From Marsupella aquatica (lineage: Eukaryota > Plantae > Marchantiophyta), in NCBI GenBank assembly GCA_973895155.1, contig OZ316893.1:14600645-14664644 (forward strand): DNA of 64,000 nucleotides, read 5' to 3'. Of the stretch, positions 3,730 to 64,000 are shown piece after piece (the first letter of the stretch is position 1; each line of letters begins with the position of its first letter). The notes below the pieces were generated by a model. The model did not search any database and was not told the DNA's origin. It saw only the letters and a list, made by a program, of their open reading frames with translations. Both the position numbers and the translations under genes were made by a program.

Positions 3730-4322
3730 GATTACTATGATTATATGTAGTATGCGTTTCAGTGGCGGAAATACAATTTGTCTAGATTGATGAATTCACA
3801 AATTGATGACATGAATAAATGGAATGTGAAGAGCTTTCGTAATTGGAGGTGTTAGCTGGAGTGGTCGATTGTAATTTGCGTTGGTTGCTGCACTCCAGCC
3901 TCTCGCTTTGTCTGATTGTCCGATCGCGTTGTGCACGGCTGCTTGCACGCTCGCCTTGCCTCTGTTCGTAGTCTTGAAAACTTCACGCGGCGAGTGTATT
4001 GCGTGCGCGTTGGACGTTCATGAGACGCAACGCTTCGTGCAAAACCTTCACGCGGTGACTAAAGATCGGACAAGTGTGAGCGTGGTTCGTAGAAGGGCGG
4101 AGGAAAAAAAATTTAAAGGAAAAAAAACAGAGCACTACTCGTGCTGATAACGTGTTGGACCATGACAAGATGGAAAAAGATCTCGTGTATACTCCCAAGG
4201 AGAAGAATAAGTACATGCGGCTTGAAGGCCGTTGCCCTGAGGCAGTTATCCTAACTGAGTTAGGTAGAACTCTAGTTAGGCAAGTAGAACTATGGTAAGT
4301 AGGTTTAACCTGGGTTACAACA
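1..4322 (-). mobile_element. Ty1/Copia LTR retrotransposon, Bianca-like lineage (5' part; 3' end outside window)
   Basis: Short 5' LTR at 4153-4322 (TGTTG...CAACA, 170 bp), followed on the - strand by the Bianca-type PBS CGTTATCAGCACG (4140-4152), then gag-pol. Confidence 0.88.
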
Positions 4323-4962: not shown

Positions 4963-5306
4963 TGTTAGATATTACTCTAGTCTTGTGACTCATGAGCTAA
5001 CTACAATTAGGCTAACTCGGGTTACGACTTAGCTATTGTTAGCGGTAGTGCTGTTGTGTATATAGCCAGGGCTGATGCCAGACCCTGGTGGAACTTAGGC
5101 TCATTGTTACGGAGCTAGTTGAGAGATAGGGAGAGTTTGTGCTGTGGATGCTTGGTATGGCCGGTCGGCCTAGAGTGCAGTAAAGCTCTTGTGTGTTCCT
5201 GTGGACGTAGCCTCATGTGGAGGTGAACCACGTATCTCTCTGTGTCGACTATTGTGCGTTGGATGGTTCATGGGCTTGCCGTTGCGAATGTCGTCTATGC
5301 TCAACA
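4963..5306 (+). mobile_element. Solo LTR of the Copia family found at 40236
   Basis: TG...CA ends with a perfect 5-bp TSD TATCA (4958-4962 and 5307-5311). About 95% identical by eye to the LTR at 40236-40581. Confidence 0.93.
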
Positions 5307-18191: not shown

Positions 18192-19239
18192 CTTATCATT
18201 AGACTCAGGTGCTCTGCGCTTCCTCTGTCGGCACCACAACCCACGATCAGATCTGGAAAACCTGACTGGTATAGCAATAAGATGCAAAAGATTCCACGGG
18301 GTGCACTGATTTTGTAATTGTGCTTTGTTTCTTAGTGAAGACCGAAGATCAAATCAGGTTCAGTAAACCTGCAGGGCTGTTAGTCTAAACAATGACACAA
18401 GGAGAAACCTATCAAGTCACAGCTACTCACTTACTTGAACGATCACGTCTGTTGTACTGATCATTTTGGCTCTGGATTTCAAATGTGCAACAACAGCGTT
18501 AACTGCTCGATTGATGACACGCCTTAAATCCATGGCATTCATTCCGACTGCTATCGATTTCTAGCCTTCTGAGAAAATGGTCTTCGTGATTCCAACAGTA
18601 GTTCTGCACGTTGTTCCTGAACACATCCCATCGGAAAATCAGTTGCAAAGACCTGTTTAAATAGAATCTTAATATCCCCCTCAAACAGCGGAAGCACGAA
18701 GACGTAAACCTCAGAAACAGACAACCCCTTGGAGCTGATCGCGTCTTCCACCCGCCAACACACTAAAGAACCCTAAACCTTAACCCAAGAGCACCGAAGT
18801 TGGGGAGACGAATATATCGACAGCCAAGAAGAGCAGCAATCGAAGAAAACGCACCATGATGCAGACACAGAAGCTGTTGCCGGCCTCTGCATTGTCGCTG
18901 CCAGCGGACTAACTGCTTGGACAATGAATTAAACACGAAGCACTGCTCCAAAACGAGGAGCAAATGTAACTTTGACAATTATAAGACCTCACCATCCAAA
19001 CTCTGGGATGCTCCCATCTTGTTCTCATGCTCTTTGAAAACTCAACTTGAAGGCCACTCGGCAAGACCCTCCGCAACTCCCGCAAATTCTGAACAGCTGC
19101 ATTCACTTTTAAAGATTGAAGCTCTTTCAATTACAATTCTCCCGTGCTGCTCCCCGACAGCCGAACTGGGGCCGATCAACGTTTCGCAGTCTCGTTTTTA
19201 CTCACAAAAACGAGACGTATGTTTTACACATTAGGACAT

Positions 19240-24299: not shown

Positions 24300-27026
24300 T
24301 TAATCTTCCATCTCATCATCTTCATCGTCAATTGCCTGAATTCTCATCTTCTTGAATTCCTTGGGATTTTCTTGAGGTCTGTCAGGCACCCGGATGAGAA
24401 TGTCCGCTTTCACACCCGTCTCACTGTTCACAAGACCCCCGTTCTTCTCCACATGATACGATAACTCCTTTCCCTTTCCACCTGCTACCGTTTTCTTGAC
24501 GTCGATAAACACCGTAGAATTCTCATCAATGTCGCCGCCAATGAGCATACGCGAGAGCTGAGTGACCACCTTCCGCTCCAACCAGCGCCGCAGAGGACGA
24601 GCACCATACAGAGGATCGTAAGACTCCTCTAGCACCAGGTCCAGAGCTGCATCCGTGACGGCCAATGCCACACCGCGGTCCGCCAACCGCACGGCCACGT
24701 CCTTCATCTGCATTCGGGCGATCTTCCGAAGTTGATCGGGCGCAAGAGGCGAGAAGACCACGATCTCGTCCAGCCTGTTGAGTAATTCGGGCCGGAAATA
24801 CATACGCACCTCATTCAAGACTTTATCCTTGGCGACGTCCATCGAGTGAGCTCCAGTCATCCCGGCCAAGAGATGCTCGGCTCCGAGATTAGACGTCATG
24901 ATTATGACGGTATTGGTAAAGTTCACCGTCCGGCCTTTACCATCGGTGAGACGACCATCGTCGAACACTTGCAGGAGAGCGTTGAATATGGAAGCGTGCG
25001 CCTTCTCAATTTCGTCGAAAAGAATGACGCAGTAGGGACGTCTCCTTACAGCTTCTGTGAGTTGGCCGCCATCGTCGTGACCGACGTAGCCCGGCGGAGC
25101 GCCGATGAGCCGGGCGACAGAGTGCTGCTCCATGTATTCCGACATGTCGATGCGCACGAGCTGTTTCTCGCTGTCGAAAAGCTGCTCGGCGAGGGCTTTG
25201 GCCAGCTCGGTTTTTCCCACACCTGTTGGGCCGAGGAAAAGGAAGGAGCCAGTAGGTTGCTGCTGCCTTCCGAGGCCTGCTCTGGATCGGAGCACGGCTT
25301 CTGCCACTGCCTGCACGGCTTCATCTTGCCCGACAACGCGCTGGTGGAGGCGGCCCGAGAGCCCAAGCAGCCGCTCCATGTCGTTTTGCCCGAGCCGTGT
25401 CACCGGAATGCCGGTCCATCGGCTCACCACTTCGGCGATTTGGTCCGGCCCGACAACCTCCGTCAGCATGTTGTTCTCTCCAATTTCGGCGTCTAATTTG
25501 GCAATGCTCTCCTCTATCTCCTGCAGTGCGCCGTAGCGCAAATCGGCTACCCTCGCGAGATCATATCTCCGCTCGGCATCTTGGATGTTGAACAGAATTT
25601 CCTCACGCTTCTGCTTCAGGCGACGGTTTTCATCGACTCTCGCTTTCTCCCTCTCGTATTTCATCTTCAGAGGTCGCAATTTGTCGTTGAGGTCGTCCAG
25701 CTCTTCTCGTACCTCTAGTAGGCGGGCTTTGCTTGACTTATCCTTCTCTTTCTCGAGAGCGTGGAGCTCCACTTCGAGCTGAATTCGGCGCCGCTCGAGA
25801 TTGTCTACCTCTTCCGGCTGGCTGTCCAGCTGCACTCGTATGTTGGCGCACGCCTCGTCGACCAGATCGATGGCCTTGTCTGGTAGATGACGTTCTGTAA
25901 TGTAGCGATTGGAAAGCTGAGCAGCAACGACGAGGGACTTATCTAGAATGCGAACTCCGTGATGTCCCTCGTACTTCTCCTTCAATCCTCGCAGAATGCT
26001 GATCGTGTCTGCAACACTAGGCTCAGAAACAAGCACTTGTTGGAAGCGACGCTCAAACGCTGCGTCTTTCTCCACATACTTCCTATACTCTTCCGTTGTG
26101 GTAGCTCCAATACACCGAAGCTGGCCACGGGCAAGCATTGGCTTGAGGAGATTCGCTGCATCCATAGACCCTTCCGTTCGCCCTGCACCGAGAACGAGGT
26201 GAATCTCATCAATGAATAGAATGACCTTCCCATCAGCATCCTCGACCTCCTTGAGCACAGCTTTGAGCCGCTCCTCAAATTCACCCCTGTACTTAGCCCC
26301 GGCGATCAATGCTCCCATGTCTAGGGCAATCAACCTTACGTCGGCTAAATTGCTGGGAACATCTCCTCTCACAATTCGCTGCGCTATGCCTTCCACGACC
26401 GCAGTCTTCCCTACTCCTGGTTCTCCGATCAGAACCGGGTTGTTCTTAGTTCGCCTGGACAAGATTCGAATAACTCTCCGAATCTCTTCATCCCTCCCGA
26501 TCACAGGATCGAGCTTAGCGGCGTCCTCCACCAAATCTCTTCCATATTTCTTCAGGGCTTGGAAATTCGTGTCTGCGGAGGGGTTCTCGACTTTCCTATC
26601 GCCACCGCGCACTTTCTCGAGCTCCCCTCTCACCATGTTGACGCTCAATCCCGCCTCCTTCAAATAATCTCCGATTTGCGGGTCCTCAAGAAGAGCCAAT
26701 ATTAACTGATCGATTGGAAGATGGGAGTCTCCTCTCTTCTTCTGTAGCGCTTGCGCTTTCCGTATGACCTTGATAAGGACCGAATTGGCGGGGAGCTCAT
26801 CGGGAGCCGGAGTCTGAGATGGGATCTTCTTCAACGCCCGGTTGAACACCCTCTCCACAGATTCTACCGCCCCAGCGAGTGTCTGCTTGAACAAACCGTC
26901 GGGGTCGTCAAGAAGCGCCGCAGCCAGATGGATGGGAGCGTACTGCGCATGTCCGTTCTTAATCGCGATCTCCTGCCCCGCAGCTAGCGCCTCATTCGTC
27001 TTGTGCGTAAACTTCTCCGGATTCAT
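24300..27026 (-). CDS. HSP101: Cytosolic heat shock protein 101 / ClpB1 disaggregase, 908 aa, no coding introns
   Basis: [15 protein letters not shown] start, two AAA+ modules (GEPGVGKT and GPTGVGKT), coiled-coil middle domain, RIDMSEYME, and an acidic C-terminus [17 protein letters not shown]. Confidence 0.98.
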
Positions 27027-27440
27027 GGTGGCAAATGCAATCCCACTTTCACCGAATTGCGAAACACTCCCTTCAAATCACGAAACCTCCTCCTGTGCGT
27101 TCGAACGTCCTACTCGACTCCTTCAGCCGTGCGAATCGTGCTACAAAAACAAATCACACCTGTTCGTAATTCCCCTTTCCTGAATCACAGCAGCCTACAC
27201 TGACCAAATTCACTCCGCTTCAAAATCTTTCTTCAAACTCTGTCTACAGAATTGACACCTCCTTTTCTTCGAGTGCAATCTTCTATTCTGCAGAGCCTCA
27301 ATCCTATCTTCGTTCGAGAGAAACTCCTCCCTATTCTTGTTATTGTTCGTCTGTCGTCGATGTCCACTAATCTGTCACCTGCAACAGCGATCAACGAAAT
27401 GCGAATCACAACATGGAAATCACAGCGTGTTGCGCAGGGC

Positions 27441-37158: not shown

Positions 37159-38541
37159 TTATCTAGTTTCCTTTCTGCCCTTCAATTCGCTCCTGTACAC
37201 CTGCCGTCCGTCCTCTTCCTCTTGCCAAATGAATTGCTCGAGATGGGCCGAATGTCCACGCGCTGGAGGAGCTTCTGCTGCCACGAGAATTTTGATAACG
37301 AGCAGGACTTGCAGAGAGAGTGTGTGGAGCGTGTGGCCGTCGCGACCGTTTTGGTTCGAGGCTTCGAGCTTTTCGGCTATGGTGGGAATTGGCGAGTCTG
37401 AATTTGATGCGCATAAATGATATTGCGAAAGAGCCCGCGAAGGTTCTGATTGGCACTATCTTAGTTGCTTCTGATTATCGTAGTACCACCCCACAGGACT
37501 TAAATTATTTTTCATTTTTGTGAATAAACAAAATATTAATGGAAATTGAAGGCAAGATGGACCCCATCTTGGACAATGTTATGATGAATATTTGAAGCTA
37601 CTATAATGGTAAATACACTTTTCAGATTTTGTCTGATTTTGTCTTAGTGATATTTTTGTGTCATTTTTGTTTCATTGTGCCTTATCAAAGGGCATCCTTT
37701 GTATCATATAGATTTTTAATTAATTTTTGTACCCCTTTAATTTTTGGTATCCTATAGAATTTTGAACTTAATTTGGCAGTCCTCTTAATTTTTAATCTTT
37801 GTTATCTCTTAGATTCCAAAGTGTGAATTCACTTGAACTAAGTTTTGAAGCAGAGAAATGGTTCTAAATAACATGAACACATTGTGTTCTTAAGTTCCCC
37901 TCATGGCTTTCTTTCCTAATTTTATGGTTTTTATTTAATTACGTCATTAATAATGCACGTTGAATTAATAAGTGCACAGATTGTAGCACATTTGTGTCAT
38001 ATAACTTGATTGTACTTTTCATTGGTCACTCACTATGTGCTTTTCTTTGCATGTGCTCTACTTATATTATTTTATCCAACACACACTTAATATGTATTCT
38101 AGGTCCACTTTCTTATTTTATCCACTTACATATTACTACAAGACAAAAAAAACAATCAAGCATGTTCTAGGATGAGCATGCTATTTGATGATTATGAGTC
38201 CTAAACTAATTTCTAGTTTTGCATTTGCGAGGCAACTAGAGAGTGAATACATGTCAATAAAACCACAAGCCCAAATAGTTCATATTAACATCATGAGAAT
38301 TAATCTAATGATATTTACCCCTCTTCATGTTATGATGAAGAACTCAACCAAAATGGCCAAAAATTCACTCTAACCTTAATGGAAGTGTGGCTTACCTACT
38401 CCTAGAGTCGCATATCCCCAAATCTAAAAACAAATTGATTTTGTGAATATGAAGTTGTTACAATTAAACTCAAATTTGGGGAAATATGGTCCATGGGGGC
38501 TATAGATTCATATTAATGACCTGTTTTCATTTTAGGAACAA

Positions 38542-39061
38542 CAGCTTTTTATTATACTACCCCCCAAACTGGTAGTTATTAGGATACTGCCCCCAAAACT
38601 AATATATTTAGTATACTGCCCCCCACACCATATCCCATCACTTTTAACCCAAGTACTTGACCACTGCTGTGTTCCGATTGGCCAAAAAGTAACCATAGTC
38701 GATGACCAACCTTACCACAGTATCATCTTCGCCCGGGCTCAAGGCGCAACCGTGTTTGATCAGTGTGTATGGGGTCGAAAGTGCCGCACTCGCATTGGGG
38801 ATTGCAGCCTGAAGTGGTTCTGACCCCATACACAGTGATCGAACACAGTTGCACCTTGGGCCCGGGCGAAGAAGATATTGCAATAAGGTTGACCTTAGGT
38901 CATCGACTATGGTTACTTTTTGGCCAATTGGAACACAGCAGTGGTCAAGTACTCGGGTTAAAAGTGATGGGATACGGTTTGGGGGGCAGTGTACTAAATA
39001 TTTTAGTTTTGGGGCAGTATCTTAATAACTACCAGTTTGGGGGTAGTTTAGTAAAAAGCTG
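38542..39061. mobile_element. Mutator-type foldback MITE, 520 bp
   Basis: ~235-bp terminal inverted arms (CAGCTTTTTA...TAAAAAGCTG) and a 10-bp TSD TTAGGAACAA (38532-38541 and 39062-39071). Confidence 0.9.
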
Positions 39062-40582
39062 TTAGGAACAATGTATACACTGAAAATTTGGTGTTTACAA
39101 TAGATTTTACAATATCTCAAAATTTAGATGAAGATTAAAGTCAATTTAACTCTCCCTTTGATCGCTCAAGCATATCACTAAATACAATATGGTTGATTCC
39201 ATGTTGTTGTCAAGATCAATCATCAAATATATGCAACACAAAGGTATCTTCACAAATTCATGATCTTCTTATTACTTGACTAAATTGGCCAATGGTAGGC
39301 TGATTAGAAAGTTAGAGAGTCTGATGATTTTCTTAAAAAAACACTCATCCTATATTTGTTTTACTTCCTCCCTGTCTGTAGTTTTTCCATTCAATTCCTC
39401 CCTCACCACATACTCTTCCGTGGTCCAAGTCCAGTAGGGGGTCTCAACCCTCAAAATTTGATGGACCTTAACTTAGTACTTAAGATTACAGACATAAAAA
39501 GTTATGGATTATCAAATTCATAGTCCATAACTTTTTGCCACAAAGGTTGGTCGTATGTCATGACCATAAGTCAGTCTTCTAGAGGCTAGTTAAAACAACT
39601 TCTACATAACGTACCCTGTAAAAAGCTATGAAGCTATGACCATTTGTTTAAAGGATGTGTTGTGGACTCATTGAGCAATGCATAGGATAATGACAGCCTA
39701 GTCTTGGGTTACTAGCCTGTATCTCTGTCACCAGATCGTGAGGGAACCCTAACCAATGGCTGTTGAGAAGCTTTTTGCGCTTTCTTGTCAAACAAGATAG
39801 CATGAATGAAGGTTATCAATGACAATCCCTATATGTATAATCATCAAATGAATGTGAGTGTGTATTCTGTCTGAGTAATCAACTGAATATGAATGTGTCG
39901 TAATGCCTCATGGGGCTAACATCTATACAAATGGACGACTATGGCCTTCACATTATTGAATGTAAACTCCTCACACACAAGGAGAAAACTGTATTGCAGG
40001 TTGTGACTACCCCTAATAATTCTAAGTCCTACTCTAGTGCCCAAGCCTGTTAATTGAAATAGTGCAATTATTCATGGCCTACACATCTGCAAAGATTGTC
40101 TTCACTGGATTCACCATAAGAGCACAAAGGTTCCCAAAATGGTCATCCCAGTGACCCAGTTAGCATTGATCCAACCCTCATCAATGAAGTTGATTTGGTT
40201 GTCGTTATTCACACCATAATTGAACTCACTTGCAGTGTTAGATATTGCTCCAGTCTTGTGACTCATGAGCTAACCACAGTTAGTCTAACTCGGGTTAGGA
40301 CTTAGCTAATGTTAGCGGTAGTGTTGTTGTGCATATAGCCAGGGCTGATGCCAGACCCTGGTGGAACTTAGGCTCATTGTTACAGAGCTAGTTGAGAGAT
40401 AGGGAGAGCTTGTGTTGTGGATGCTTGGTATATGGCCGGTCGGCCTAGAGTGCAGTAAAGCTCTTGTGTGTTCCCGTGGACGTAGCCTCATGTGGAGGTG
40501 AACCACGTATCTCTCTGTGTCAACTATTGTGCGTTGGATAGTTCATGAGCTTGCCGTTGTGAATGTCGTCTATGCTCAACAA

Positions 40583-50192: not shown

Positions 50193-52831
50193 CCCTGGGC
50201 CCTCACTATGTGTATATTAATGAAACCCACCTGTGAACGACCCCCTCTCCAAAAACCTTCAGTACTATTTTTTGTCCTTTTAAAAAACTCTTGTTAATAT
50301 TAATAAATTATTTTTGGACCATTAATAAAGCCCTTTGGGCTATTATAATCATCACCAAAATATCATTAAATATGCCCTTCACGTATTATAAAAAAATATG
50401 TCAAAGAGATTCTGAATTGGAAAAACTGAAATATACATATATCATTTTGAGATAACATATACTTTATGTACACATTTCCTCGTACACATGCATTTCCTCA
50501 GGAAAATAAGGAGGCACATAAGAGTCAAAGATCATGCAAGTAAAGCTTATAATTGGAACACTATCATCTATGAAAATTGTAAGAATACAACATTTGACAT
50601 ACTTAGTCCTATAGTTCATGTAAATCTAAACCTACCCAAAACTTCTATCTAATCACTTTTCACTAAAATGATAATTTTCACTAAAGCACATAAATAACTC
50701 TGGTTTAAAACACTCTCTCAGATATCATGTTTGATATACTTCATCGGAAGCAACATGCTTAAACACCTTTGTCGACTTGACCTCCTCTTCCTTAGGGGGC
50801 CAAGTATGGCCATACATTTCTTAGTTGATATAATCCTCTAGAAAATATAATCTTCTAGACAATACCATAATGCTGCAACTGGTCAAAACAGCTTTGAGCC
50901 TGAACAACAATAAACCACATATTCATTAACATTTCATGGAATGACTCACGTTTGCTTAGAAACTGAACATTAGGTAACAGTCAAAACCAGATTCTAAACC
51001 TAGACACAGTTTTCTACAATAAAATAACAAATCCATTTGAAAATTTACTTACCAAATATCACATTCAATCAATTTTGCTCTTTACAAAGTTTTCCAATGC
51101 AATTTGAATACTTTTGGATGCAAAGGATTGACTTCAAGGGTGACTGTTGATATCTCACAGTCTAAATCAATCCATTGAGGATCACACACAGAGTACCTAA
51201 ATTTCTCCTTATTATTACCAATTGGAGTAAACCAATTAAAGAACACTTTGCATGCAACTTCTGGACCAGGCCTATCAAGCAAGTCCATTGGTTCTCGTGA
51301 TCTTCCACTTGTGTTTCCATATTTCCGTTGAATAGTTTGAGCTCTTCCTATCCACCAAACATATTTTGGACTGCTGGTTACTGACACAACTGGAACTGGC
51401 AAACCACTAGGCCTCCTTCGCTTCTGTCTCCCATTCTGTGTGGTCTCAGTGCTTCTCGTCACTCTTCCCTGTGCTATCTCATCCACAAAAAATACTCCAC
51501 AATCGCTGCCGACACTCATCATCATAGTTGTAGCACCCACTCGTACTTTTGGTTTATCCACCAAATTGTTGAAGTAAAAACTTTGTTTCACCCGTGTCAA
51601 ACGATCCTTGCTAAGATGAGGGTTCCCTACCATTTGACTAACTAAAGTACTCTTATACATTATTTGACCCTCAAAACTCACAGTGGGAACAACTGTGACA
51701 CCAGACTCACCATACACTAAATCTGTGTGTATATCAGACATTACAGCATAACAGCTATCTCGAGCTATGTGTACATCTGGCACCCCATCTTCAAGCACCC
51801 CATCATGGAGGGCTGAATTTGCCTCTTCAGCTCCTATAGTGGAGGATCCAGCTACTGTACATGGACCTTCTGGAATAAGTTGTATATTTGCTATTTGTCT
51901 GGGGTTAGGTCTATCCACCAATGTTGCATCCTCATCCACCTCCAAGGATTCCACATTTATATCACACCATGGTGTGTACCTTTTGCCTCAACTTCCCATG
52001 GTGAATCCCACCATATAGTGTTTCTAGCAAATGTGGAAGGGTTCATCTGGGCCTGAGTAGCAACATCTTTGGCTAACAAAAAACCTTCTTGCAAAGCCCT
52101 CACGATATCTGTATTAGTTTCAATCCCTGTATAGTCTGTTTGACTAAATTTTCTTGGAGACCCATGTGGTACTGGGTGGAGTTTCATCCAAATATTTCTG
52201 TGTTTTTTGTGACTGTGAGCAGCTCCCACTATTCCTTCACTCAGGTCCATTGTTGTCAATCGGTTCAAAGAGGTTGCACAATCAACCAACTCAGTCAGGT
52301 CATAACTTCGTTCATGACCATTCATGCCTCCCACTTTTGAAAAAAATTGTTCACAACTATCTAATCCAGTCAGATGTAGAGGCACAGGCAACTCAGGAAA
52401 GTGGTCTATGAATTGAATAATCAAAAGTGGCACAAAATGCACAGACATATGAATGTCAAGAAATGTTTGCATAGGGATGCAATTTTGCTTGAAACTTATT
52501 GGCTGTGTATTACCACCTACAGAGTGATTCCCATGGAAACACCACATTCGCCAGAGTCTGAAAAAGAACCCCACTTTGCCACACAAAACAATCCTCTGCC
52601 TCAAGCTCAAGCTTGTATTCAGGAAAATGTCAACATAATCAGCACATATTCCCAAATAAAGTTCTGAGCCAAGAGTCATCTCTTGTCTGACATCTGGTCG
52701 ATTTCGTAACATGAAGAGTGTATTGATAAGTTTTCGACTACAAAGTCGTTGGGCACTAGTCCAATTTTTCCTGTCTGACCTTAGAACATCCTCATGATTC
52801 ATTGCATGATCTTTGACATCATACAATTCAT
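50193..52831 (-). mobile_element. DNA transposon with CCCTGGGCCCTCACT terminus, P-element-superfamily-like; interrupted by the CACTA
   Basis: The first 15 bp are identical to the left end of the MITE at 40583. It begins exactly where the Gypsy integrase breaks and carries a transposase-like remnant. Confidence 0.78.
51082..52831 (-). pseudogene. C-terminal half of a P-element-like DDE transposase (frameshift near 51960; N-terminus displaced by the CACTA)
   Basis: DRKNWTSAQRLCS resembles P/THAP9 DxMNVxxAxQLFS, and LTGLDSCEQFFSKVGGMNG resembles the catalytic-E motif QDxLENFFxxIRxxGG. Confidence 0.62.
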
Positions 52832-55800
52832 CACTAGTAGAAACCGGGGTAATTTAGACCATACCTTATAGGACTAAGCCCACTAAGTCCTTCTTCCATA
52901 CTTTAAATGACTTGCACCCATTGCCAAGGTTTTGTTAAAGACTATAAAAGACTTTGAGTGTTTTCCGGTTTAGTTAAAGACTATGAAAAGTAACCTTGCT
53001 ACTTTGTGAAGGGTGAACACTCTAGGACATCATGGGTTTTGTTCTTGGAATCACTCTAAAGGTCCACACAAAGACTAGTTTAATACAAAGTCTTACAAGG
53101 GTTCATGATAAGAGTATACTTAAGAAGGACCGGGCGACATGCTACTTTTGGGTCTAAGTGCTTAAGGACATGCCTTCTATATATCACCAACCTTAACTAA
53201 CATTGCATCGTAAATATCCATGTAACGGGTACTTTTCATAACTTAGGGTACAATTGTAGGGCTTAGGGTGGTTTCTAACCGGAATCGGAACTAATGCATC
53301 ACTATAACCCTAGCTAGGTACAACTCCCACACCATGATATATTCCGCATTGCCAACTAGTGTTGTTTTGACAGGGTCATGGGCACTAATTGACACAATGA
53401 ACAGTCCACAACTTGATTGATTTGAGTGTAAATGATGGTGCCTTTTGATCCAAGATTAATTCCACAAGGGGGGGGGGAGGGTTAGGGGGGCCCACAACTA
53501 ATTAAGTGGCCATGACTTTGTCACCAAAGGGATTTATTTAAAGTTATCCTTAACCCTCTTTAGTTTTGTGTGTTGCCTAACACTCTGGCACAAACGTACT
53601 TATTATGCTCAACGGGTCACCTCAACGGAAACGAGCTTACATGACTGCTTGCACTAAGTATTGGGTTAGGGTGAGTGTGCTTTGGTCATCAGGTGATTAT
53701 TGGGTTTTTGTGAAGGGAACTATCGAGTACTTGCGCCCCTGTGTTCGGGCCCCATTGTGCGACAGAACATTGTGCTTTGCTTCTATGAGTGGAGCATACG
53801 AGTAGGGTTTAGGGTTAATATTTTGCGAGGGAAGCTGGGAGGCGATTGTAGTCAATTGTTGCCATCCACTCCTGCGAGCGCTTTTGACAGTTCTACCTGC
53901 ATGCCCCTTACAATTGTTTGGACAAAGGAGTTCAGCAAGTGGTTTGCGCTGGTTTGGGACCTTGACAGTCGTGAGGTGGTAAGGACATTGAGGCATCCCT
54001 GAGAAGCGCTTGATGGTAAGGACATTGAGGTGTTGGAGACATTGAGGCGTTGCGGACATTGCCTTAGAGGCTCTTGAGGCCAGTGACAGCTTTTGGCGCG
54101 AAGGCAAGCGGAGATTTGTCTCCTGCCTGAGAGCTGACAGCTTCGGATTGAGACAACGTGGCACCAAGATTCAGAGAAGACTGACTGGCTGGGACCGACC
54201 GGTCTTGGGAAGTTGCAGCCGTGGAGGGACCGGGAGCGCTAAGGTACATTGCAGCTACGAGCAGCAATGCACCTGCCATAGTGACATTGAACTGCCCTGA
54301 ATCACCCTGGTTAGTCCAAACTTCCATTTGCAAGTTAGTTTTGGTAGTGGCTTTGGTTTTCTAGGCGGAATGAGCTCCGATGCCATGCATTAAGAATGTG
54401 GGAAATGCTATTTTGTAGCTTGCTACCTCATAGTGCTAATTTCAACTTCAGGTTTGCGTGGTTTTGGGCGATAAGCTTGTGGCTCATTCGGACTGAGTGA
54501 CCTTCCTGCGGGCCCTGCCCTAAGTGTTCACACTTCTCGCCGTCCCAAACTGCGAAAGGCTTCTCCCCGTTCTGTATCCCTGCTTCAGTAATTGTATTGA
54601 GGTCTTTCAATCAGTCTCATAGGGGAGGTCATTGTCTTCTCTGTAAGTTGTTGCTCCTATCGCACTACCAAGCTTGTTGAAGGGAGCTACTATCGCGAGC
54701 TGCTACCATTGCGAGCTACTACCATCGCAAGTTGTTGAGGAGAGGGCCAGTTGTTTGCGAAAGGATTTCCAGATTGTGTCGGAGGTCCAGATTTCTTGCC
54801 TGTGGGTCCCCATGTTTGCAGTTTTTTCCTGGCTTCTTGCGCAGTGCTCCGACGTAGTACCCATGATGCTAGTCTGAACGGATTCATGAGCTGTGACTGA
54901 TTTGCTGTTCAAATGATGTCTTCAACTAGAGCTACAATTAGTGTCTGCGGAGCTGCCAACCAGGTGCAGGTGTGATTGAGGTCAGTTCAACTGTTGGGTT
55001 GCCCGAATGTTCCGTTGCCATCATTTGTAACCACGAGCAATGGACTTTAGAGGCGGGATTTTCTAGGGATTTCTGCTCAACCCTTTGCTGGCTTTCTACA
55101 TTGAGGTCTATTTTGGGGTTCGGGCAAAGGGCGGAGGGCAAAGATCAAGCATTGCAGTTTTGCTAACGCTGCATGGTGGAAATTGGACCAGCCAACTCCT
55201 TGTCTACGGTGTTGTGGAGCTGGGCGAGCTGCGACAAGGGACCAAGCCAGGCGACCTGTAAATCAAAGCCCATTGACCGCTGCTGAAGGTTTGATGTTCT
55301 ATATTTGAAGCTCTCGTTTGCTTTCTATTTGTCAGTCTTTCACAACTGCGCATTAGTGTTGGCCCTATCCTCCGTCCCTCTGCTGGCCTGCTACTGACAT
55401 TTGGTTAATCATAGTTGTTCACTACTGTGCATTAGTGTTGGCCCTATCCTTCGTCCCTCTGCTAGCCTGCTACATTTGGTTAATCAAAATGCAATGTCTG
55501 TCTGAGTGAGCTGATCATCTCCAATGTAGTATGGGCTTGGGATTTACATATATGTTTCCTGCTTCCAGCAGATAGGCAATTGCTTCCAAGCTCTTTGGTG
55601 CAGACGTCTCTATGGAATGCAATGCCCTATATGCCAGAGCTTTCATATATTGGCATGTTCACATTTGCTCTTGGAATATATGATCCCGAAAGCTTCATGA
55701 GCAGTTTATGTTCAGAATTCTGTTTATGTTATTGTTTCCGTCAATTGCAGCTTGGATTTTTGAATATATGTCCTGTCATTGATGATAGAGGGTGGTTGAG

Positions 55801-58146
55801 ATTGGTTTTCGTTCTTCTTGGTAGTGGGTCAGTGTGTTGGCATTTTCCTCATGTCACTCATTCTCATCGGACGAGCTGCGGATTGGTACTGAATAGTCAT
55901 TTAGCCTATTGCTGCCTCCCACCGCCATTGCCGATTGCCGCTATCATCGTGTATTGCTTGCTTGCTTGCCACTGCCTTTGTTGGTTGCCACCCTCTTCAC
56001 ACTCTCTCGCATCTATCTTCCGATATGAACGCGCAGCCAAGCCCACCAAAAGCTCTGTCCCTACAATCCCTCCCAAATCAACTTCCTTGTTTCCTGCTGC
56101 TCATGATCACCGCATTGTTCTTCCCTATTTTTGTTTACTTATTGGTCTCTCCACACTTGTTGCTTCACATGACTATTTTGCTCCTCCCTGGATCCAAACA
56201 TGCCTTGTGCCCAATGCTCCCACGGTGGAGTGGGGTGGTGAATAGACGACCTCAACACCATTGCAATCACATTTGGATGGGTTAGTTTTTTGCAGCTTAA
56301 ACCTGTCGGGATTTTGCGCTTGTGGCGACGCTATCCTTTCTGCCACTTCATGAGTTTGTTTATGCTGCAGTGGGCGGTCTTGCGCAACTCAATGAGCCAA
56401 TTTCATTTTCCCTGTGCACTTCTATTTCTCAGAGAATTCCCTGGTCATGCTCATTTGCCCCAGAGTTAGAAAACAAAGAAGAAGAAGAGCTGACTAATTG
56501 TAATTCCAATCCATATCCTGATCGGTCAAGGATTGTGAACTACATTGGCCTTGTCATTGGCCGAGGTCACCAAATTTTGCTTGGTTTCATTCCTGTGGAG
56601 CACTGTTGTGATGGATGAATAGTTGTCGTAGCATTCTGCAAACTCTCACGGTTTGCTTATGGCCATTATTTGCAATTTGCTGCTACTAATATGTCTCCGA
56701 CTGAGCAGCATACACCGGAAGTAAGCAATAGTGGAGGTTTAACTGCACATCAACACATCCAGTGAACTACCTCTCTGCTGCTCACTGGAGGGTGAGACTT
56801 TCACTCTTTCTGGATATTGTAGTTTGTAAGCAAGTTGATTAGGAGTGTTTCATGCTATGTTTACATTGTGACCCCTAGCTGGAACCAATGGAATGACACA
56901 GTGAGTGGGAACTGATAATTTAAGGTTGGTTGCTGTTGGTGAGGCAAGTACAGCTCCTGCTCACCTTGCTGATCGAAGGTGCTTATCAGAGGACGTGAAC
57001 ACACGACACTCCACAAAAGCAACACTTATGGTGAGGACCCGCAATGCTGAACATGTGCGGCTTGCACGCAAGGCAGAGATGTTGCACCTTGAGTATGTCA
57101 GACTTGGGATCCTTCCAGCCCAGTCTGCATGGTACTTTGAGTACCCAGTTGTTGCCAGGAATAACTACAGCCGCCCTGTACCTGCTTCTCCACCCTTCCC
57201 AACATTCTTGGTATTTTTGTCTCTCGTACATGACCCGCCACAAATTAGGGCCCAAGGGTGTGTGCACAGTTGCCAGTATGACTGTCCTGCCTGTAGGGCT
57301 TCTGGCCTAGAGTTGGATGACCATTCTCTTGGATGTCGGTTTTTTCACAGAGCACAATGTATCATCTAGAACCACTCGCCATCCTGCAGTGTGCCTGGCG
57401 ATGTCACTTGTCCTGCCCTCCCAGACCCCACCACCGGTCACTTTGGTGTCTACACATATTTGGATCACACGCTGTAGAAGACCACTTGTCACACCGCATG
57501 CACAGACCAGAGACCATTGACCTATAACTTAACACTTTGACTTGAACAGAGAGGATATTTACTTAAGATTTTGAATTATGAGCAATTTTGGGTCCAGGGT
57601 TTACGGTCAACAGTACATAACTTATCCTATTATGGCTGCACTAAGTACAATATCCTAATTTAAGAGGCTAGCAAGCTCACTTAAAAGTCTCCTTTCAAAG
57701 ACTGGAATTAATGGGCCATGTGATAACCTGGAAAAAGTGATTTATGCCTAACTTATTTGTCTCATTCACTATCATAGCCTATTTAGGATGTATAAATTAC
57801 AACCCTGATCACACTGCTTGATACCAATCCTGTTCAAAAAATGCCTGTTTTACATGTCACGACTATTATATGTGATTCAAATGCATTAAATCTTGTTGCA
57901 GATCTCCTTTGGTGAATCATAGCCACAAAATTGAGGTGTAGGTGGAGCTATTGTACGAGGGGATCAGTTTTTAGTGTGGGCTCAATAAACCAAAAAGTAT
58001 GTCTACTCTGCACATGTGTATGAACATTTCATTGCAGTAGCAATTGCCACTCTAGTCTATATGCTACATTGTACTTTTTGTACACTGCACTAAATTGTAT
58101 TGTCTGTGCACTCTACTAAATTGTACTATCTGTCTCAGGCGTAGGC

Positions 58147-58827
58147 ATGGCACGCCCTAAAATCCGAGCCAAGAAGCGGGGGACAGAGGTGAGCAACACA
58201 GGTGTAGTTGGGCCAGATGGTAGTAACTTCTCCGCAAGTCAGATTTTCCAGAAGGCAGCTCATTGTTGTGCCATTTGTGACGATGGTGGTGGCTTAGCCA
58301 TATGTGAGGGCCCTTGCATGAGGCATTTCCACCTCAACCCGGAGTCTGACCTTGCTGCAGAAAACAACTGTCCAGGGGTGGGCCTCCCGTCAGCACACCA
58401 GGGAGGCTGGATGTGCACTGATTGTTTGGAGAAGCAGGCTAAGTGTGCACAGTGTGGGAAGTTGGGGTCTTATGAGGGCTCTGTTGATGCTCCACCACTT
58501 GTTAGGAAATGCCCTGACAGATATTGTGTGAGGTTCTTTTGTTTTTCATGTTTGCCCGATCTTGCCACAGCTTGCCCACTTCATAAGTGCAAGGCATGTG
58601 GTCAGCACGATGAAGATTTCTGGGTGGACATAGTCCACTGTGTTAGGTGTCCCACCATGTGGCACTTTCATTGTTTGAAGGAGCGTCAAGCAGAAGGCTA
58701 TGCTTGTGACAGACACATCTATCATCACTCTGCACATGGTGTTGATCGATCGATCTTCTATTGTCATCGCCATGCCATAGATCCTACTTTGCACACTCCC
58801 ATGAGAGATCACATTTCTTGGCTTTGA
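58147..58827 (+). CDS. Stand-alone EDM2-type PHD-finger cluster protein, 226 aa
   Basis: CAICDDGG..ICEGPCMRHFH, CGKLGS, CPLHKCKAC, CVRCPTMWHFHCL and FYCHRHAIDPTLHTPMRDHI are collinear with the EDM2 PHD region. Basic N-terminus; splice acceptor TCTCAG at 58138. Confidence 0.85.
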   Translation: MARPKIRAKKRGTEVSNTGVVGPDGSNFSASQIFQKAAHCCAICDDGGGLAICEGPCMRHFHLNPESDLAAENNCPGVGLPSAHQGGWMCTDCLEKQAKCAQCGKLGSYEGSVDAPPLVRKCPDRYCVRFFCFSCLPDLATACPLHKCKACGQHDEDFWVDIVHCVRCPTMWHFHCLKERQAEGYACDRHIYHHSAHGVDRSIFYCHRHAIDPTLHTPMRDHISWL

Positions 58828-59425
58828 ACCTGAATAATGTACATGCATAGTGCACCTGATGTGGATACCTTGGAGATTGCAGACATTCCAATTTTGAGAA
58901 GAAGGACCTCTGTAGGAGAGGATGCATAGGCAACAAGTACCCTAAGTTCATTACTTGTTCCTGGGTACATGCCTTCAAAAACTCCCCTTAAGCCTTCTAG
59001 GAACTTTTTTAACTCTGCAATCATTTTGATCACGACTTACATGACACTGCTTAAATTAAATCAGGACTTCTCATTATGAGCATATAAGTTACAAGGCTAT
59101 TTAATTTGCGAGAATTCCCTTAAAGTGTACCAACATTTTCTATTCTCATTGAATGTCTGCCCATTTACAACATCTGTATGTGGCATCACAAAACAATTGC
59201 ACTTGTCACCTTCAATATTGTCAAGGCACATATTCAAACTATGAGGTGCATGCTTGCAGGTGTCTAGTACGTTTGTCCCAATATTTCTCCCGTTTGGAAT
59301 CGGAGCAGAGACTCACCAGACGACTGGATTGGACCAAGTTATAAACGCAGCATTTTAAGGGCCCTCCGATTATCAGGTGAACGCATTATCTTCCGGTCTG
59401 CAGTGATTAGGTGGCCCGTGTGTAC

Positions 59426-60274
59426 ATGGCCTCTAGGAAACGTACAAAGGTTGACCACCCGCCTCTGTTGGCTGGAATCAAAGCCATTTTGATTCCTGGC
59501 CACTATGGGTTCACCCAAGTGAGTTGGCCAATCGTACAAAAACGATTCTCAGAGTTCCATGGGACTGAAGTCAAGGACATCACTCCACAGACTACACATG
59601 TTGTTGCGGGGACATGGCTGGATGTGATGAACAACTGGTCATGGTCCTTCATTGATTCTGCCATTACCAACCAAGGTCTAAAAGTAGTTGAAGTCTCTTG
59701 GCTGACCGATTCTGTTAAACATAGGTGTGTACAGAGTACTGAGCAATATGAGTTGTGGGAGAGTGAGGAGGCCACTGCAGAGGCTTTGGCTGAAAAGGAA
59801 GCCTATGAAGCAGCGGCAGAGAAACCCAACTTTGCTTCTGTCCAATATGGACCTGTTGTCAACATAGGACACCATCCTATGCGTGCAGATGCTATATTGA
59901 ATGAGCATGGCAAGGAGAGAAATACCATTATGAAGGGGTTCAGTGTGGTATTTGCAGTAGAAGGAATTGGGGAGACTAAGTGCAGATTGTACAAGTCTAT
60001 AGTTGTTGAGCTAGGTGGGACAGTGGAGGAGAGTCTAACAGAAACCTCCACTCATGTTGTAGGTCTGTCATACATGAAAATATGCAGAAAATTCTTTAAG
60101 ACAACAGTGCGTGATTTTGTCATGAACAACAATCTTTGGGTGCTTTCCCCTGATTGGCTTCTGGAATCAGCAGCTAGAGGGAAGCGACAGAATGCTTGGG
60201 ACTTTGATATTTTTGAGGCCTGGCCCTCCAAGATTCAGCGGAGATGTATGCTTAGCAAAGGTGGGAGAGAGTGA
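59426..60274 (+). CDS. Tandem BRCT-domain protein, 282 aa
   Basis: Two repeats with G...THVV and W(L)xxS motifs (TTHVVAG...VVEVSWLTDSV and LGGTVEESLTETSTHVVG...VLSPDWLLES). N-terminal MASRKRTK is NLS-like. Confidence 0.82.
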   Translation: MASRKRTKVDHPPLLAGIKAILIPGHYGFTQVSWPIVQKRFSEFHGTEVKDITPQTTHVVAGTWLDVMNNWSWSFIDSAITNQGLKVVEVSWLTDSVKHRCVQSTEQYELWESEEATAEALAEKEAYEAAAEKPNFASVQYGPVVNIGHHPMRADAILNEHGKERNTIMKGFSVVFAVEGIGETKCRLYKSIVVELGGTVEESLTETSTHVVGLSYMKICRKFFKTTVRDFVMNNNLWVLSPDWLLESAARGKRQNAWDFDIFEAWPSKIQRRCMLSKGGRE

Positions 60275-60450
60275 GGAGTAGGAGTCCCTCATATTTTTGT
60301 ATAAATCACAATTTTGTAATAAATATGATCCTTGAACTAACTCATCTTGTCATGGTTGGTCGCAGTTGAAGTGATTGTTGTTTCCTGCTGCGTGGGGTGT
60401 GACTGTGAATCTACTTGCTGGGCTCTGTTTGGCTGAAGACTTTGGTGGGT

Positions 60451-60984
60451 ATGCTGCCTCTTCCAGACCGTCAGGCCCTATGTAGGGTCCTCCTACGGGT
60501 TGCATCGTGCATGGCTACTGCTTGGGCTTACTTGTGTGGATTGGTAACCAGACAGAGTGTAGCTCCATCCGAGATAATGCCTGCAGACCTTGGATGTGTT
60601 GTGAATGCTGTGGTGAATGAGGATGCACAGTCGGAAGAGGATATTTACTTTTCAGCAGATGAGTTAGACAAGCACGATGCTGTAGGTGGTTCCTTGTTGC
60701 CTGATTTGGCAGATGATATAGTTCTTGCACATGTCTGGCCGAGGGTTCTTGTGGTGTCTGGCGCACAAGATATCTGCAAATATAGACTAATTAGTACCCA
60801 GTGGAGGGACTTGGTAGCAACATGTGCACCATGGAGGGCACTGCTGCCACTGCTTGTAGGCACGGATCGAAGACCACCATGGCATGAGCAGGGTTTAGAC
60901 CTTGATGACTTAATGTACATGCCTGAGTACCTCAGGGCTGAGTGGCATCGACAACAGGATTGGTATCCGTATTTGATGTGGTAG
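60451..60984 (+). CDS. Small F-box-like protein (start codon uncertain: 60451 or 60511)
   Basis: SLLPDLADDIVLAHVWPRV...CKYRLISTQWRDLV fits an LPxLPDD...R.V.K.W F-box pattern. Confidence 0.6.
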   Translation: MLPLPDRQALCRVLLRVASCMATAWAYLCGLVTRQSVAPSEIMPADLGCVVNAVVNEDAQSEEDIYFSADELDKHDAVGGSLLPDLADDIVLAHVWPRVLVVSGAQDICKYRLISTQWRDLVATCAPWRALLPLLVGTDRRPPWHEQGLDLDDLMYMPEYLRAEWHRQQDWYPYLMW

Positions 60985-61310
60985 TAAGATGAGGACATCT
61001 CACACCGGTCTCGCACCTGGCACCTGTGTCTATGACTATACATGATTGGACTCTGATATGGTCATGGATGTACGTGCAGAGGCAGTACATGTGAGGACAG
61101 CGGAGGAGTTGACACCCTCAAACATTTAGGAATTTTGTCTCATTCACTTGAGAATAGGTACATGACTCAGGCACCTATATTTTTTATTTTTTTATTTTTT
61201 TGGAACGTTACGTATTTTGGCAAGTACAGTCGAGGGTGAAATCCTTAACAGGAAGTGTATTTTTCACTTGCATAATAAAATGACAGGGTGCTGAGTGCGT
61301 GTGTATAGTG

Positions 61311-64000
61311 ATGGCTCCAAGGTTGCCTCTTCACAACCCATTTAGGATTAGGCATCATGATTCTAAATTGTGGATGCGTGAACAAGCCCGGGCCGCCCAA
61401 GGTAGGAGTAGGAGGATGAGATGCCCATGCACACAGTGCCAAGGATTCAAGTCGTTGAGTTTGAACACTGTGCACCTTCACCTGCTGCGGCATGAAAGGC
61501 ACCCTCGGTGGAGGGTTTGGAATGTACCAGCAGAAGAAGACTCCTCTGATGAAGAGTGGAGAGCTGACTTTGTGGATTCTAATATAGCTAGGCGTAGAGA
61601 CTATGTAGAGCAGGACATAGACTGTGCAGAGGATGGTCCTGGGGTCCAACATGAGAACGTGGATGACCAAGATGGAGATGGAGAGGCAGTCACTGAGGAC
61701 GGTGGGATGGATGTCCCAAGAATGGTTCAAGAGATTTTTGAAGACCTTGATGCTTTTTACGACACAGTGGAATCAGAAGAGGACAATGAACCGCAGCCAC
61801 ACATTGGCGACGGACAAGCTGAACCTGACTTTGACATTGGGGAAGGTGCAGCAAAGAGGGAGTGGGTGTTTGGGGGCCCAAAACACATCAAAGAAGCTTG
61901 CATTCCTATCTACGAGGGGTCGAACTGCTCCAAGCTGGGTTTTGTCGTGTTGTTGTTGAACATCTGTGGCAATCACAATGTTCCCAATATATTTGTGACA
62001 GAGTTGTTGACCTTCCTGCTCCGAAATGTGTTACCAGATGGTAATTCAATTCCAAAAAATATGTACGAGGCTAGGAAATTGATGTCTAACCTTGGGCTGA
62101 ACTATGTGTCTATTGACGCATGCCCTGATGGGTGTGTTCTCTTTCGCAAAGAGCATGCAGATAAATTGACATGCCCTCATTGTGGTAAGCACAGGTACAA
62201 GAATGTAGGGAAATGTACACACCCTGCCAAGGTTCTTCGTCATTTTCCTCTCATTCCTAGACTACAACGTCTGTTTAGATGCCCTGCCATTTCCAAGCTG
62301 ATGACATGGACTCCTGATAACAAGAGCAGTGATGGCCTGCAGCGTCACATTGGAGATTCCAACCATTGGAAATTTGTTGATGAGAGGTGGCCACAGTTTG
62401 CTACAGAGAAGCGGAACTTTCGATTTGGTCTATCACTGGATGGAGTAAACCCATTTGGAGACAAAAACAACCGTTATTCATGTTGGCCGGTTACGCTGCT
62501 AAATTACAACCTTCCCCCATGGATGACTACAAAGAGGTTTTTTGTCATGATGGTGCTGTTAATCCCTGGACCAGCTTCTGTGACCGAGCAATTCATAGAT
62601 ATCATGTTGGCTCCAGCAGTGGAAGAGTGGAAGACTTTGTGGATAGAAGGGGTGTTAACCCATGATGTTCTGAAGGGGCTTCTTCGACCCAGCCCCTTTA
62701 GACTGCATGCAATTTGTTTGCTGGATATAGCAGATTACCCAGGCCATGGCATCATATCTGGACGAGTGACAAAGGGCTATGTGGGGTGCACACCATGTGG
62801 GAAAAATGTGACAAGTGAGTGGTCGCATGCCCTGCACAGTATGAAATTTCAGGGGCATAGAAGGTATCTGCCTGTTGATCATCCTTACAGGCACACACGG
62901 TCTCAAATTGCACACTTCAACAACAAAACAGAGCTTCGTGGCCCACCACAGAGGGTCACCAGAGAGCAAGTCCTGAGGTGGGCAGCCAGGAAGGCTGATT
63001 GGGACAAGAGAAGTGCCACTGATCGAGAACCTGAGGATCCAGTGGTGAAACATGGTGTGAAAAGACAGACCTTGATGGACTTGGAGTTGGAGTACTGGAG
63101 GGTAATGTACTTAGCCTCCAGCCCCTGTATGATTGCAATTTTAGATTGGAGCAATGGTGGATTGATGTTGGTTACAATCCTCCTATGTGGTTAATTAGTG
63201 TTTCTGTTGTTGAATTCTTTGCTTTGTGGAGTGCAGGAATTCGAGCCCAGCAAACACAATGTGGACGTCATGCACATTGAGAAAAATATTTGTGAGAGCT
63301 TGCTGAAGTTCTTGTCGGGTGAGAAAGATACAGGAGCAGTTCGAGCTGATATGCAATAGAAGGGGATTCGCCCTCACCTTTGGTTGAAGCCCCATGCAAG
63401 CAATCCCAATGTACTTCTCAAGTTCCAAGCTCCCTATGTGTGCACACAGGATGAATGGAAGACATTCTTGTATAGATTGAGCTGTCTGAAAGTGCCCTCT
63501 GGCTATGCTGGTGCCTTCAAGAAGCATATTACAAAGAATAAACGTGGCAGTATGAAAACACATGACTACCATGTGTTGATGCAGCACATTCTGCCCCTAT
63601 GCCTCAGAGGTCTCATGCAGAAACCAGTCCGTAATGTCATTCTTCGACTGTGCAATGTATTTCGCCGTATATGTGTGAAAGTGTGGGATCCCCAAGGATT
63701 GGAGCAGTTGAAGCAGGATGCTGCTTATGTCCTCTGTGACTTGGAGATATACTTCCCCCCTGCTTTCTTTGATGTTATGACTCATCTCCTAATCCATGTG
63801 GTAGAAGAGCTAGGGCAGTATGGGCCAGTCAGTACCAGATGGATGTACCCTATGGAGCGATACATGAAGTTGTTGAAAGGTCATGTGAGAACATACTACA
63901 GGCCAGAGGCTTCCATGGCATTGGGGTACATTAAGGATGAGATGTTGGGATTCCTAACAGAGTACATGGCTGGGTCTGGTGAAGCTATGACAAGAGTTTG
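61311..64000 (+). pseudogene. CACTA Tnp2/TnpD transposase (Transpos_assoc, Transposase_21, DUF4218), intron 63102-63236, premature TAG at 63357
   Basis: CPCTQC...HL, IDACPDGCVLFR, LSLDGVNPF, YNLPPW and DYPG in exon 1. After the intron: HNVDVMHIEKN, MKTHDYH, FPPAFFDVMTHL and RWMYPMERYM. Confidence 0.95.

Follow-up and report, generated by a model that had tools for sequence, protein, structure and literature searches.

The window analysed here, a 64,000-nucleotide stretch of the liverwort Marsupella aquatica (NCBI GenBank assembly GCA_973895155.1, contig OZ316893.1, positions 14,600,645 to 14,664,644 of the forward strand), ends in the left 11 kb of a CACTA-type transposon, recognised by its left end and its transposase, which carries an undescribed, conserved set of accessory genes. 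Four small open reading frames (ORFs) lie in the core of the element, namely ORF-X, a stand-alone PHD-finger cluster, a two-BRCT protein and an F-box-like protein. The equal sequencing depth and CpG depletion of this cargo and the transposase, together with the conserved stand-alone homologues of three of the cargo proteins, argue for accessory genes that have long been kept and not for passive captures. We consider it probable that they are element-borne genes under selection, and the chance is about even that they were kept for aiding the element in silenced chromatin, through counter-silencing or interference with the host.

Left end, transposase and gene order

The initial annotation had placed a CACTA terminus at position 52832, and this proved correct. 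An exact-match scan of the whole window found CACTAGTAGAAA only once, at 52832, with CAT directly before it. Public sequencing runs marked the same point: a contig of a diverged copy in run X3 (33 letters differ over 52832-53017) begins at exactly 52832, and the summed depth in run X1 was 2128 in the bin 52755-53205 versus 194 in the preceding bin. The terminal inverted repeat characteristic of CACTA/En-Spm elements was present at the left end only; the scan revealed no right copy within the 64 kb, which stop inside the transposase. Near the terminus lie a 22-nt repeat pair (52928/52967) and a 19-23-nt array (53972-54061), the only candidates for a subterminal repeat array. The transposase matched Transposase_21 (E 1.1e-59) and DUF4218 (E 4e-27), as CACTA/En-Spm transposases do. 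The element is laid out as follows.

52829..52831, no strand: CAT, which may be the left half of the 3-bp target-site duplication pair (from sequence)
52832..52843, plus: left terminal inverted repeat CACTAGTAGAAA (exact-match scan, contig edge and depth step)
53662..55934, no strand: internal segment of a minority of copies, with no long credible ORF (X1 depth, CpG)
57028..57477, plus: ORF-X, 149 codons, Cys/His-rich, no family assigned (ORF reading); stop at codon 114 in the window copy
58147..58827, plus: stand-alone EDM2/NSD-type PHD-finger cluster, 226 aa, with the H3-like N-terminus ARPKIRAKK (Pfam, homologues, PDB, tree)
59426..60274, plus: two-BRCT protein, 282 aa, with a basic N-terminus and a variable linker of ~53 aa (Pfam BRCT E 6.9e-14, homologue)
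60451..60984, plus: F-box-like protein, 177 aa, with the motif from about residue 83 and a conserved C-terminal tail (weak Pfam match, homologues)
61311..63101, plus: Tnp2/TnpD transposase exon 1 (Transpos_assoc E 1.7e-4; Transposase_21)
63102..63236, plus: predicted GT-AG intron, 135 nt (from sequence, without RNA)
63237..64000, plus: transposase exon 2 with DUF4218, running beyond the window; premature stop at 63357-59 in the window copy

The initial annotation had described three same-strand ORFs directly upstream of Tnp2. All three are indeed open, on the plus strand and upstream, but only the F-box-like ORF adjoins Tnp2, at a distance of 326 bp; 5.3 kb separate the CACTA terminus from the start of the PHD gene, and the fourth cargo ORF, ORF-X, had been overlooked. 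The acceptor of the predicted intron has the T-richest upstream tract of all YAG sites in the element. Scanning the element for splice acceptors 5′ of the cargo ATGs gave nothing remarkable, and a shared leader spliced to the cargo ORFs is not claimed.

The window copy bears several private lesions. The transposase stop at 63357 is a Gln codon in X1, X2, X3 and X5, and at PHD codon 202 and BRCT codons 70 and 178 all four of these runs give the homologue's residue where the window copy differs. These changes, seen in the window copy alone, replace residues that homologues preserve. The window copy is a mutated and likely non-autonomous member of its family.

Conservation of the cargo proteins

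The reading of the ORF at 58147..58827 as an EDM2-type PHD cluster was borne out. Its alignment spans the entire PHD cluster of EDM2-like proteins up to and including the TPxRDHI motif, at 29-35% identity and with E values as low as 3e-32. The liverwort proteins P0014, P0017 and P0016 are the closest, and the ORF has the atypical 2.5-PHD arrangement of the EDM2/ELP type. The flanking domains of EDM2/ELP proteins, including the methyltransferase-like ELP domain, are absent; in the ORF, as in its homologues, the protein stops at the PHD motif. Judged by its domain content, it is not an EDM2 orthologue. Compared with EDM2-like proteins, the short PHD proteins also share a clade-wide deletion of ~20 aa between the fingers. 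The best PDB matches were the PHD clusters of NSD2/3 (E 1.4e-10) and AIRE, and the best single-finger matches were the PHD fingers of AIRE, which are readers of unmethylated H3K4.

Homologue searches, which detect only open ORFs of similar length, returned 115 candidates for the PHD ORF, of which five are full-length stand-alone PHD proteins; these are 217-245 aa long and share 38-81% identity with it at 97-100% coverage. When 1.84 billion representatives were searched with a profile, short PHD proteins of the same kind came out at the top, ahead of the long EDM2 proteins. Of the 39 Cys/His columns 24 are invariant, versus 29 of the 187 other columns (p 1.4e-8), and homologues as distant as 38% identity are intact, with zinc ligands, start motif and stop position all retained. 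A 67-row tree placed 12 of 17 short PHD rows on one side of a branch with support 97, while four further short rows were nested among host EDM2 proteins and one formed a long branch. In trees built on hand-picked subsets, the short rows grouped together against the sampled EDM2/ELP proteins (11 of 11 at 99; 8 of 8 at 100/100). The search for loci of this kind elsewhere gave 11 metagenome-contig loci, all of them host-type EDM2-like or unrelated PHD genes, none in five viral-contig scans, and a single weak match, likely by chance, in a scan of prokaryote genomes.

Some EDM2-like proteins (P0014 and P0017, both named as liverwort proteins, and P0019, P0027 and P0031) likewise end soon after the PHD cluster without a methyltransferase-like domain; they are a candidate donor lineage of the PHD ORF. 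Short PHD-only EDM2-like proteins were also observed in plant transcript-like contigs (L001, L003-L007), so that host lineages may make stand-alone EDM2 PHD modules as well.

Many proteins of the PHD clade start with a histone-H3-like ARxKxxAxK. In the window ORF, ARPKIRAKK matches H3 at A1, R2, K4, A7 and K9, with positions as named in PMC6208443. Counted from the first annotated Met, at least four of six H3 positions were matched in 7 of 15 clade members versus 2 of 137 other hits; composition shuffles for those seven gave p values of 0.0005-0.014, and among 1,619 six-frame Met 9-mers in the window only the PHD start (58147-58176) reached five matches. The idea of an H3 tail arose post hoc, the proteins are related, and position 3 is mostly Pro; the rival reading is a plain nuclear-localisation signal in place of an H3 mimic. 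A complex predicted for the PHD module and the first 30 residues of the same protein, for which the alignment was not used, scored 0.00 and speaks neither for nor against such a mimic.

The two-BRCT protein contains two separate repeats (Pfam BRCT E 3.1e-4 and 1.5e-9). One homologue was found among 787 candidates, with 61% identity overall, 66% in each repeat versus 42% in the linker. The initial annotation had proposed a tandem BRCT acting as a repair-factor adaptor, of which the two repeats stand. In a weak alignment with BRCA1, repeat 1 lacks the Ser/Thr-Gly and Lys of the phosphoserine pocket, with Tyr/Phe at the Ser position and Ser at the Lys position. A likeness to the BRCT of polymerase lambda could not be confirmed and was dropped, as the BRCT of TdT matched at E 0.69 only. 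The AlphaFold2 model of this protein was unusable (mean pLDDT 40.5 for the F-box-like protein and 32.5 for the BRCT protein, neither usable).

For the F-box-like ORF, the ten best named Atlas hits all belong to the F-box family or clan, and FBXW11 and FBXL5 matched at E 0.7-0.9. Three homologues were obtained among 105 candidates (51-54% identity), with the C-terminal half conserved: 53 of 92 columns are common to three proteins in the F-box half, versus 22 of 82 in the N-terminal half. An F-box identity is likely but weak.

ORF-X had no match in Pfam or PDB, and its Cys/His-rich sequence makes a new zinc-binding family possible. Its stop at 57367-69 is a Trp codon in X7 and X9. Among the best-supported 40 of 202 rows, 7 of 13 listed changed codons were synonymous versus an expected fraction of 0.287 (p ~0.05), which is a weak test. 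A DNA_pol_B_N match on 56905-57366 (E 0.14) was taken as chance.

Conservation that is confined to ligands and domains at 40-60% identity is unlike neutral decay. The initial annotation had favoured retained function over random fragments and had named neutral decay as the sign to the contrary; the stand-alone homologues of its three ORFs, with their conserved cores, and the CpG profile of a long-term resident described below largely speak for its view.

Copies of the element and its insertion site

To compare copies of the element, 13 public sequencing runs were listed, of which 11, from nine studies, contain the stretch wholly or partly, and eight were compared with it. X3 represents organism A, X2 organism B, X5 organism C and X7 organism D. 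X9, X10 and X11 consist mostly of read-sized, low-depth pieces and were not used to judge how widely the element occurs. The depths come from listed contigs, which are only part of all rows, and contig depth is a poor measure of copy number that serves as a proxy.

In X1, single-contig depth was 53-80 in the left flank, 252-267 at 53.6-55.9 kb, ~1,350-1,420 at 56.5-57.0 kb and 1,711-1,912 over the PHD-BRCT spacer, BRCT and Tnp2, with long pieces above 99% identity. Examples are a contig on BRCT (59609-60029, depth 1767, 3 differences in 421), one from the spacer into Tnp2 (61033-61918, depth 1817) and one on Tnp2 (61947-63590, depth 1912). By this proxy the element is dispersed and multi-copy, with X1 depth ~25-fold above the flank, and in X2 and X3 the variant contigs run into the thousands. 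The depth profiles in X2 and X3 have the same shape as in X1, and X5 gave pieces of BRCT, F-box and Tnp2 at ~97% identity and depth 41-75. High-depth diverged contigs covered the PHD ORF (bins 5,140 and 1,934) and the F-box ORF (808) in X7, and their loose ends translate to a homologous peptide. Single-copy ORFs, which the initial annotation had named as evidence against itself, were largely not what we found, as the cargo tiles at transposase depth in organisms A, B and C. The near-identical high-depth contigs make the family look recently amplified.

The family has a common terminus and a common core at 56.4-64 kb, with a variable segment between them. The segment 53662-55934 is covered in X1 by contigs at depth 252-267 and above 99% identity, corresponding to about one seventh of the copies by X1 contig depth. 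It contains short tandem repeats, and the CpG observed/expected ratio over 53600-56400 is 0.55 versus 0.25-0.37 in the core; the segment is possibly a later, Pack-type capture. The ratio is 0.25-0.37 in the four cargo ORFs, 0.35 in Tnp2, 1.07 in the HSP101 gene and 0.62 in the PPR gene of the window. That the cargo is as depleted of CpG as the transposase fits long residence in methylated DNA.

On its left side, the element is inserted into another repeat within a nest of transposable elements. The CACTA terminus cuts a minus-strand, transposase-like ORF (51957-52853), for which Pfam gave zero matches, and the interrupted element may be P-element-like. An Rfam scan of 52000-64000 yielded no match. 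Copia- and Ty3-type remains also lie upstream of the CACTA element. Together with the PPR-DYW and HSP101/ClpB genes they mark the DNA as that of a land plant, and the liverwort origin of the nearest named EDM2-like proteins, along with a moss-like look of the PPR gene, suggests a bryophyte. The neighbouring features are given below.

51082..52831, minus: interrupted host element, two ORF pieces, target of the CACTA insertion (ORF list; low-depth repeat in X1, X2, X3 and X5)
1..3795, minus: Copia-type gag-pol frame, 1,265 codons, open to the window edge
16137..18353, minus: PPR-E-DYW editing-factor gene in one open frame
24300..27077, minus: HSP101/ClpB gene, 908 aa, in one open frame, CpG-rich
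38540..39063: long hairpin resembling a miniature inverted-repeat transposable element, arms 86-95% complementary
4963..5306 and 40236..40581: 345-bp repeat in two copies, 94-97% identity, 35 kb apart

Proposed function of the cargo and competing explanations

Anti-silencing is the likeliest role of the cargo, as suggested by the identity of its domains. According to the accessible text of PMC7529245 and PMC6208443, EDM2 contains 2.5 PHD repeats of an atypical kind and is a binder of H3K9me2, and that of the same two papers and PMC9292364 describes EDM2 as favouring full-length transcripts at genes linked to transposable elements. The PHD protein, a putative compacted EDM2-type module without the other domains of EDM2, would likely bind H3K9-methylated nucleosomes on the element and favour its expression, whether it recruits read-through factors or competes with the readers of the host, and its H3-like N-terminal tail might serve as an internal ligand or decoy. 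At the breaks left by excision, the BRCT pair would likely contact repair proteins or the DNA ends, in a mode that needs no phosphopeptide pocket. Binding of the F-box-like protein to Skp1 would poison or redirect SCF; this protein may be the most dispensable part of the cargo.

Several observations weigh against this explanation. The PHD clade sits on a long branch and falls within none of the sampled EDM2 lineages, so that the ligand specificity of EDM2 may not carry over to it, and the single-finger matches to AIRE weigh on the same side. The few listed PHD codon changes showed no enrichment of synonymous ones (5 of 14, p 0.31). The F-box Pfam matches (E 0.083 for the window ORF, 0.0011 and 0.0034 for homologues) all fell below the cut-off. 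Pfam recognised no substrate-binding domain in this protein, which has only a conserved tail of ~45 aa, and a 43-bp frameshifting deletion occurs in the listed X5 contig (organism C) and in part of the X2 copies (organism B). Of the SCF adaptor proposed in the initial annotation, the F-box-like motif is weakly upheld; the lack of a substrate domain and the frameshift do not agree with the rest. The distant PHD, BRCT and F-box homologues come from short contigs, and that they belong to transposons is deduced. No listed contig covers two ORFs, and the gene order in other copies was read from tiling; X1, moreover, may be the window's own sample.

The same conservation and linkage data also apply if the accessory genes were selected for transposition itself, with the PHD protein guiding the transposase to marked chromatin, as the PHD of RAG2 guides RAG1, and the BRCT pair handling broken ends. 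We regard this as a real but minor possibility. The AIRE-type PHD matches and the insertion inside another repeat of the nest agree with it; however, when the motif is compared over its full length, the closest relatives are EDM2/ELP proteins, which are linked to H3K9me2 and to read-through transcription, and contact between the PHD protein and the transposase is hypothetical.

Another possibility is that the block was selected elsewhere, in a different mobile element or in an unrecognised family of host genes, was taken up whole by the CACTA element shortly before amplification and merely rides along. The homologues are known from short contigs that do not give their context, the 5′ part of the element exchanges segments, and stand-alone EDM2-like PHD proteins occur in the plant transcript-like contigs mentioned above. 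Nevertheless, organisms A, B and C each contain both cargo and transposase, with much the same depth and identity, their CpG depletion is the same, and the short PHD proteins nested among host EDM2 fall outside the element-type clade, so that a recent uptake appears rather improbable. Neutral Pack-CACTA captures of host exons without protein function are very improbable and largely refuted at the protein level: CACTA elements do capture host DNA, the window copy has lesions, the F-box ORF is broken in one lineage and replacements are many among the listed PHD changes, but the nearest EDM2-like proteins are only 29-35% identical, homologues down to 38% identity are intact, and conservation is restricted to the domains.

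Like maize En/Spm and Arabidopsis EN/SPM with TnpD and TnpA, the element has a CACTA terminus and a Tnp2/Transposase_21 transposase with DUF4218, and its accessory genes, separate from the transposase, stand head to tail, as in the accessible text of PMC13547354. Unlike in those elements, the four upstream ORFs are unrelated to TnpA, as none matched a TnpA-type family in Pfam; a TnpA-like gene downstream of the transposase would lie beyond position 64000. The accessible parts of PMC13547354 and of a preprint (bioRxiv 10.64898/2026.08.24.746577) report TnpA-like proteins only from flowering plants and describe VANC and TnpA as regulators that were co-opted or arose from a transposase. VANC of VANDAL, likely repurposed from the host chromatin regulator MAIN (PMC13547354, accessible text), is likewise a transposon accessory protein of such origin; it differs in belonging to the MULE superfamily and binding DNA sequence-specifically, whereas the window PHD protein has a predicted histone-reader-type fold. 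With EDM2 and EDM2-like proteins the PHD ORF shares the cluster through TPxRDHI; at 226 aa, it lacks an N-terminal RFD-like domain and forms a separate clade.

RAG-like transposons, with their PHD-bearing RAG2L, are also DNA transposons whose second gene carries a PHD finger, but superfamily and PHD type differ from those of the window element, and we know of no BRCT or F-box partners in them. Pack-CACTA elements likewise have CACTA ends around host-like sequence, and the 53.6-55.9 kb segment may be such a capture; the four ORFs, in contrast, are intact or conserved, far diverged from host genes and placed beside a transposase, and, judged by the EDM2-like proteins and not by a search of the host genome itself, are not the near-identical recent host fragments that mark a Pack-CACTA.

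The initial annotation knew of no description of this combination, and our search, which covered literature other than Repbase and subscription journals, likewise found no paper on a CACTA element with a PHD, BRCT and F-box set. These domains are absent from the accessible main texts of PMC13547354 and bioRxiv 10.64898/2026.08.24.746577, whose supplements could list them; accessory domains of other kinds do come up in the preprint, which surveyed 962 Spm protein structures.

A bolder proposal, which we hold to be doubtful, is that CACTA elements of one lineage of non-flowering plants use an old multi-gene anti-host kit instead of TnpA. At its centre would stand an EDM2-derived heterochromatin reader with an H3 tail mimic (A1, R2, K4, A7, K9), aided by a BRCT protein as repair decoy, an F-box-like protein that hijacks SCF and a zinc-binding protein of a new kind. 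The counter-silencing proteins of plant transposons described in the works cited here, VANC and TnpA, are DNA-binding factors of flowering plants. If the cargo of the present element is indeed kept under selection, it would point to a different route, one that works via chromatin reading, repair and proteolysis, and the persistence of DNA transposons in plants without TnpA would become testable. Given the apparent recent amplification of the family, an active copy may exist.

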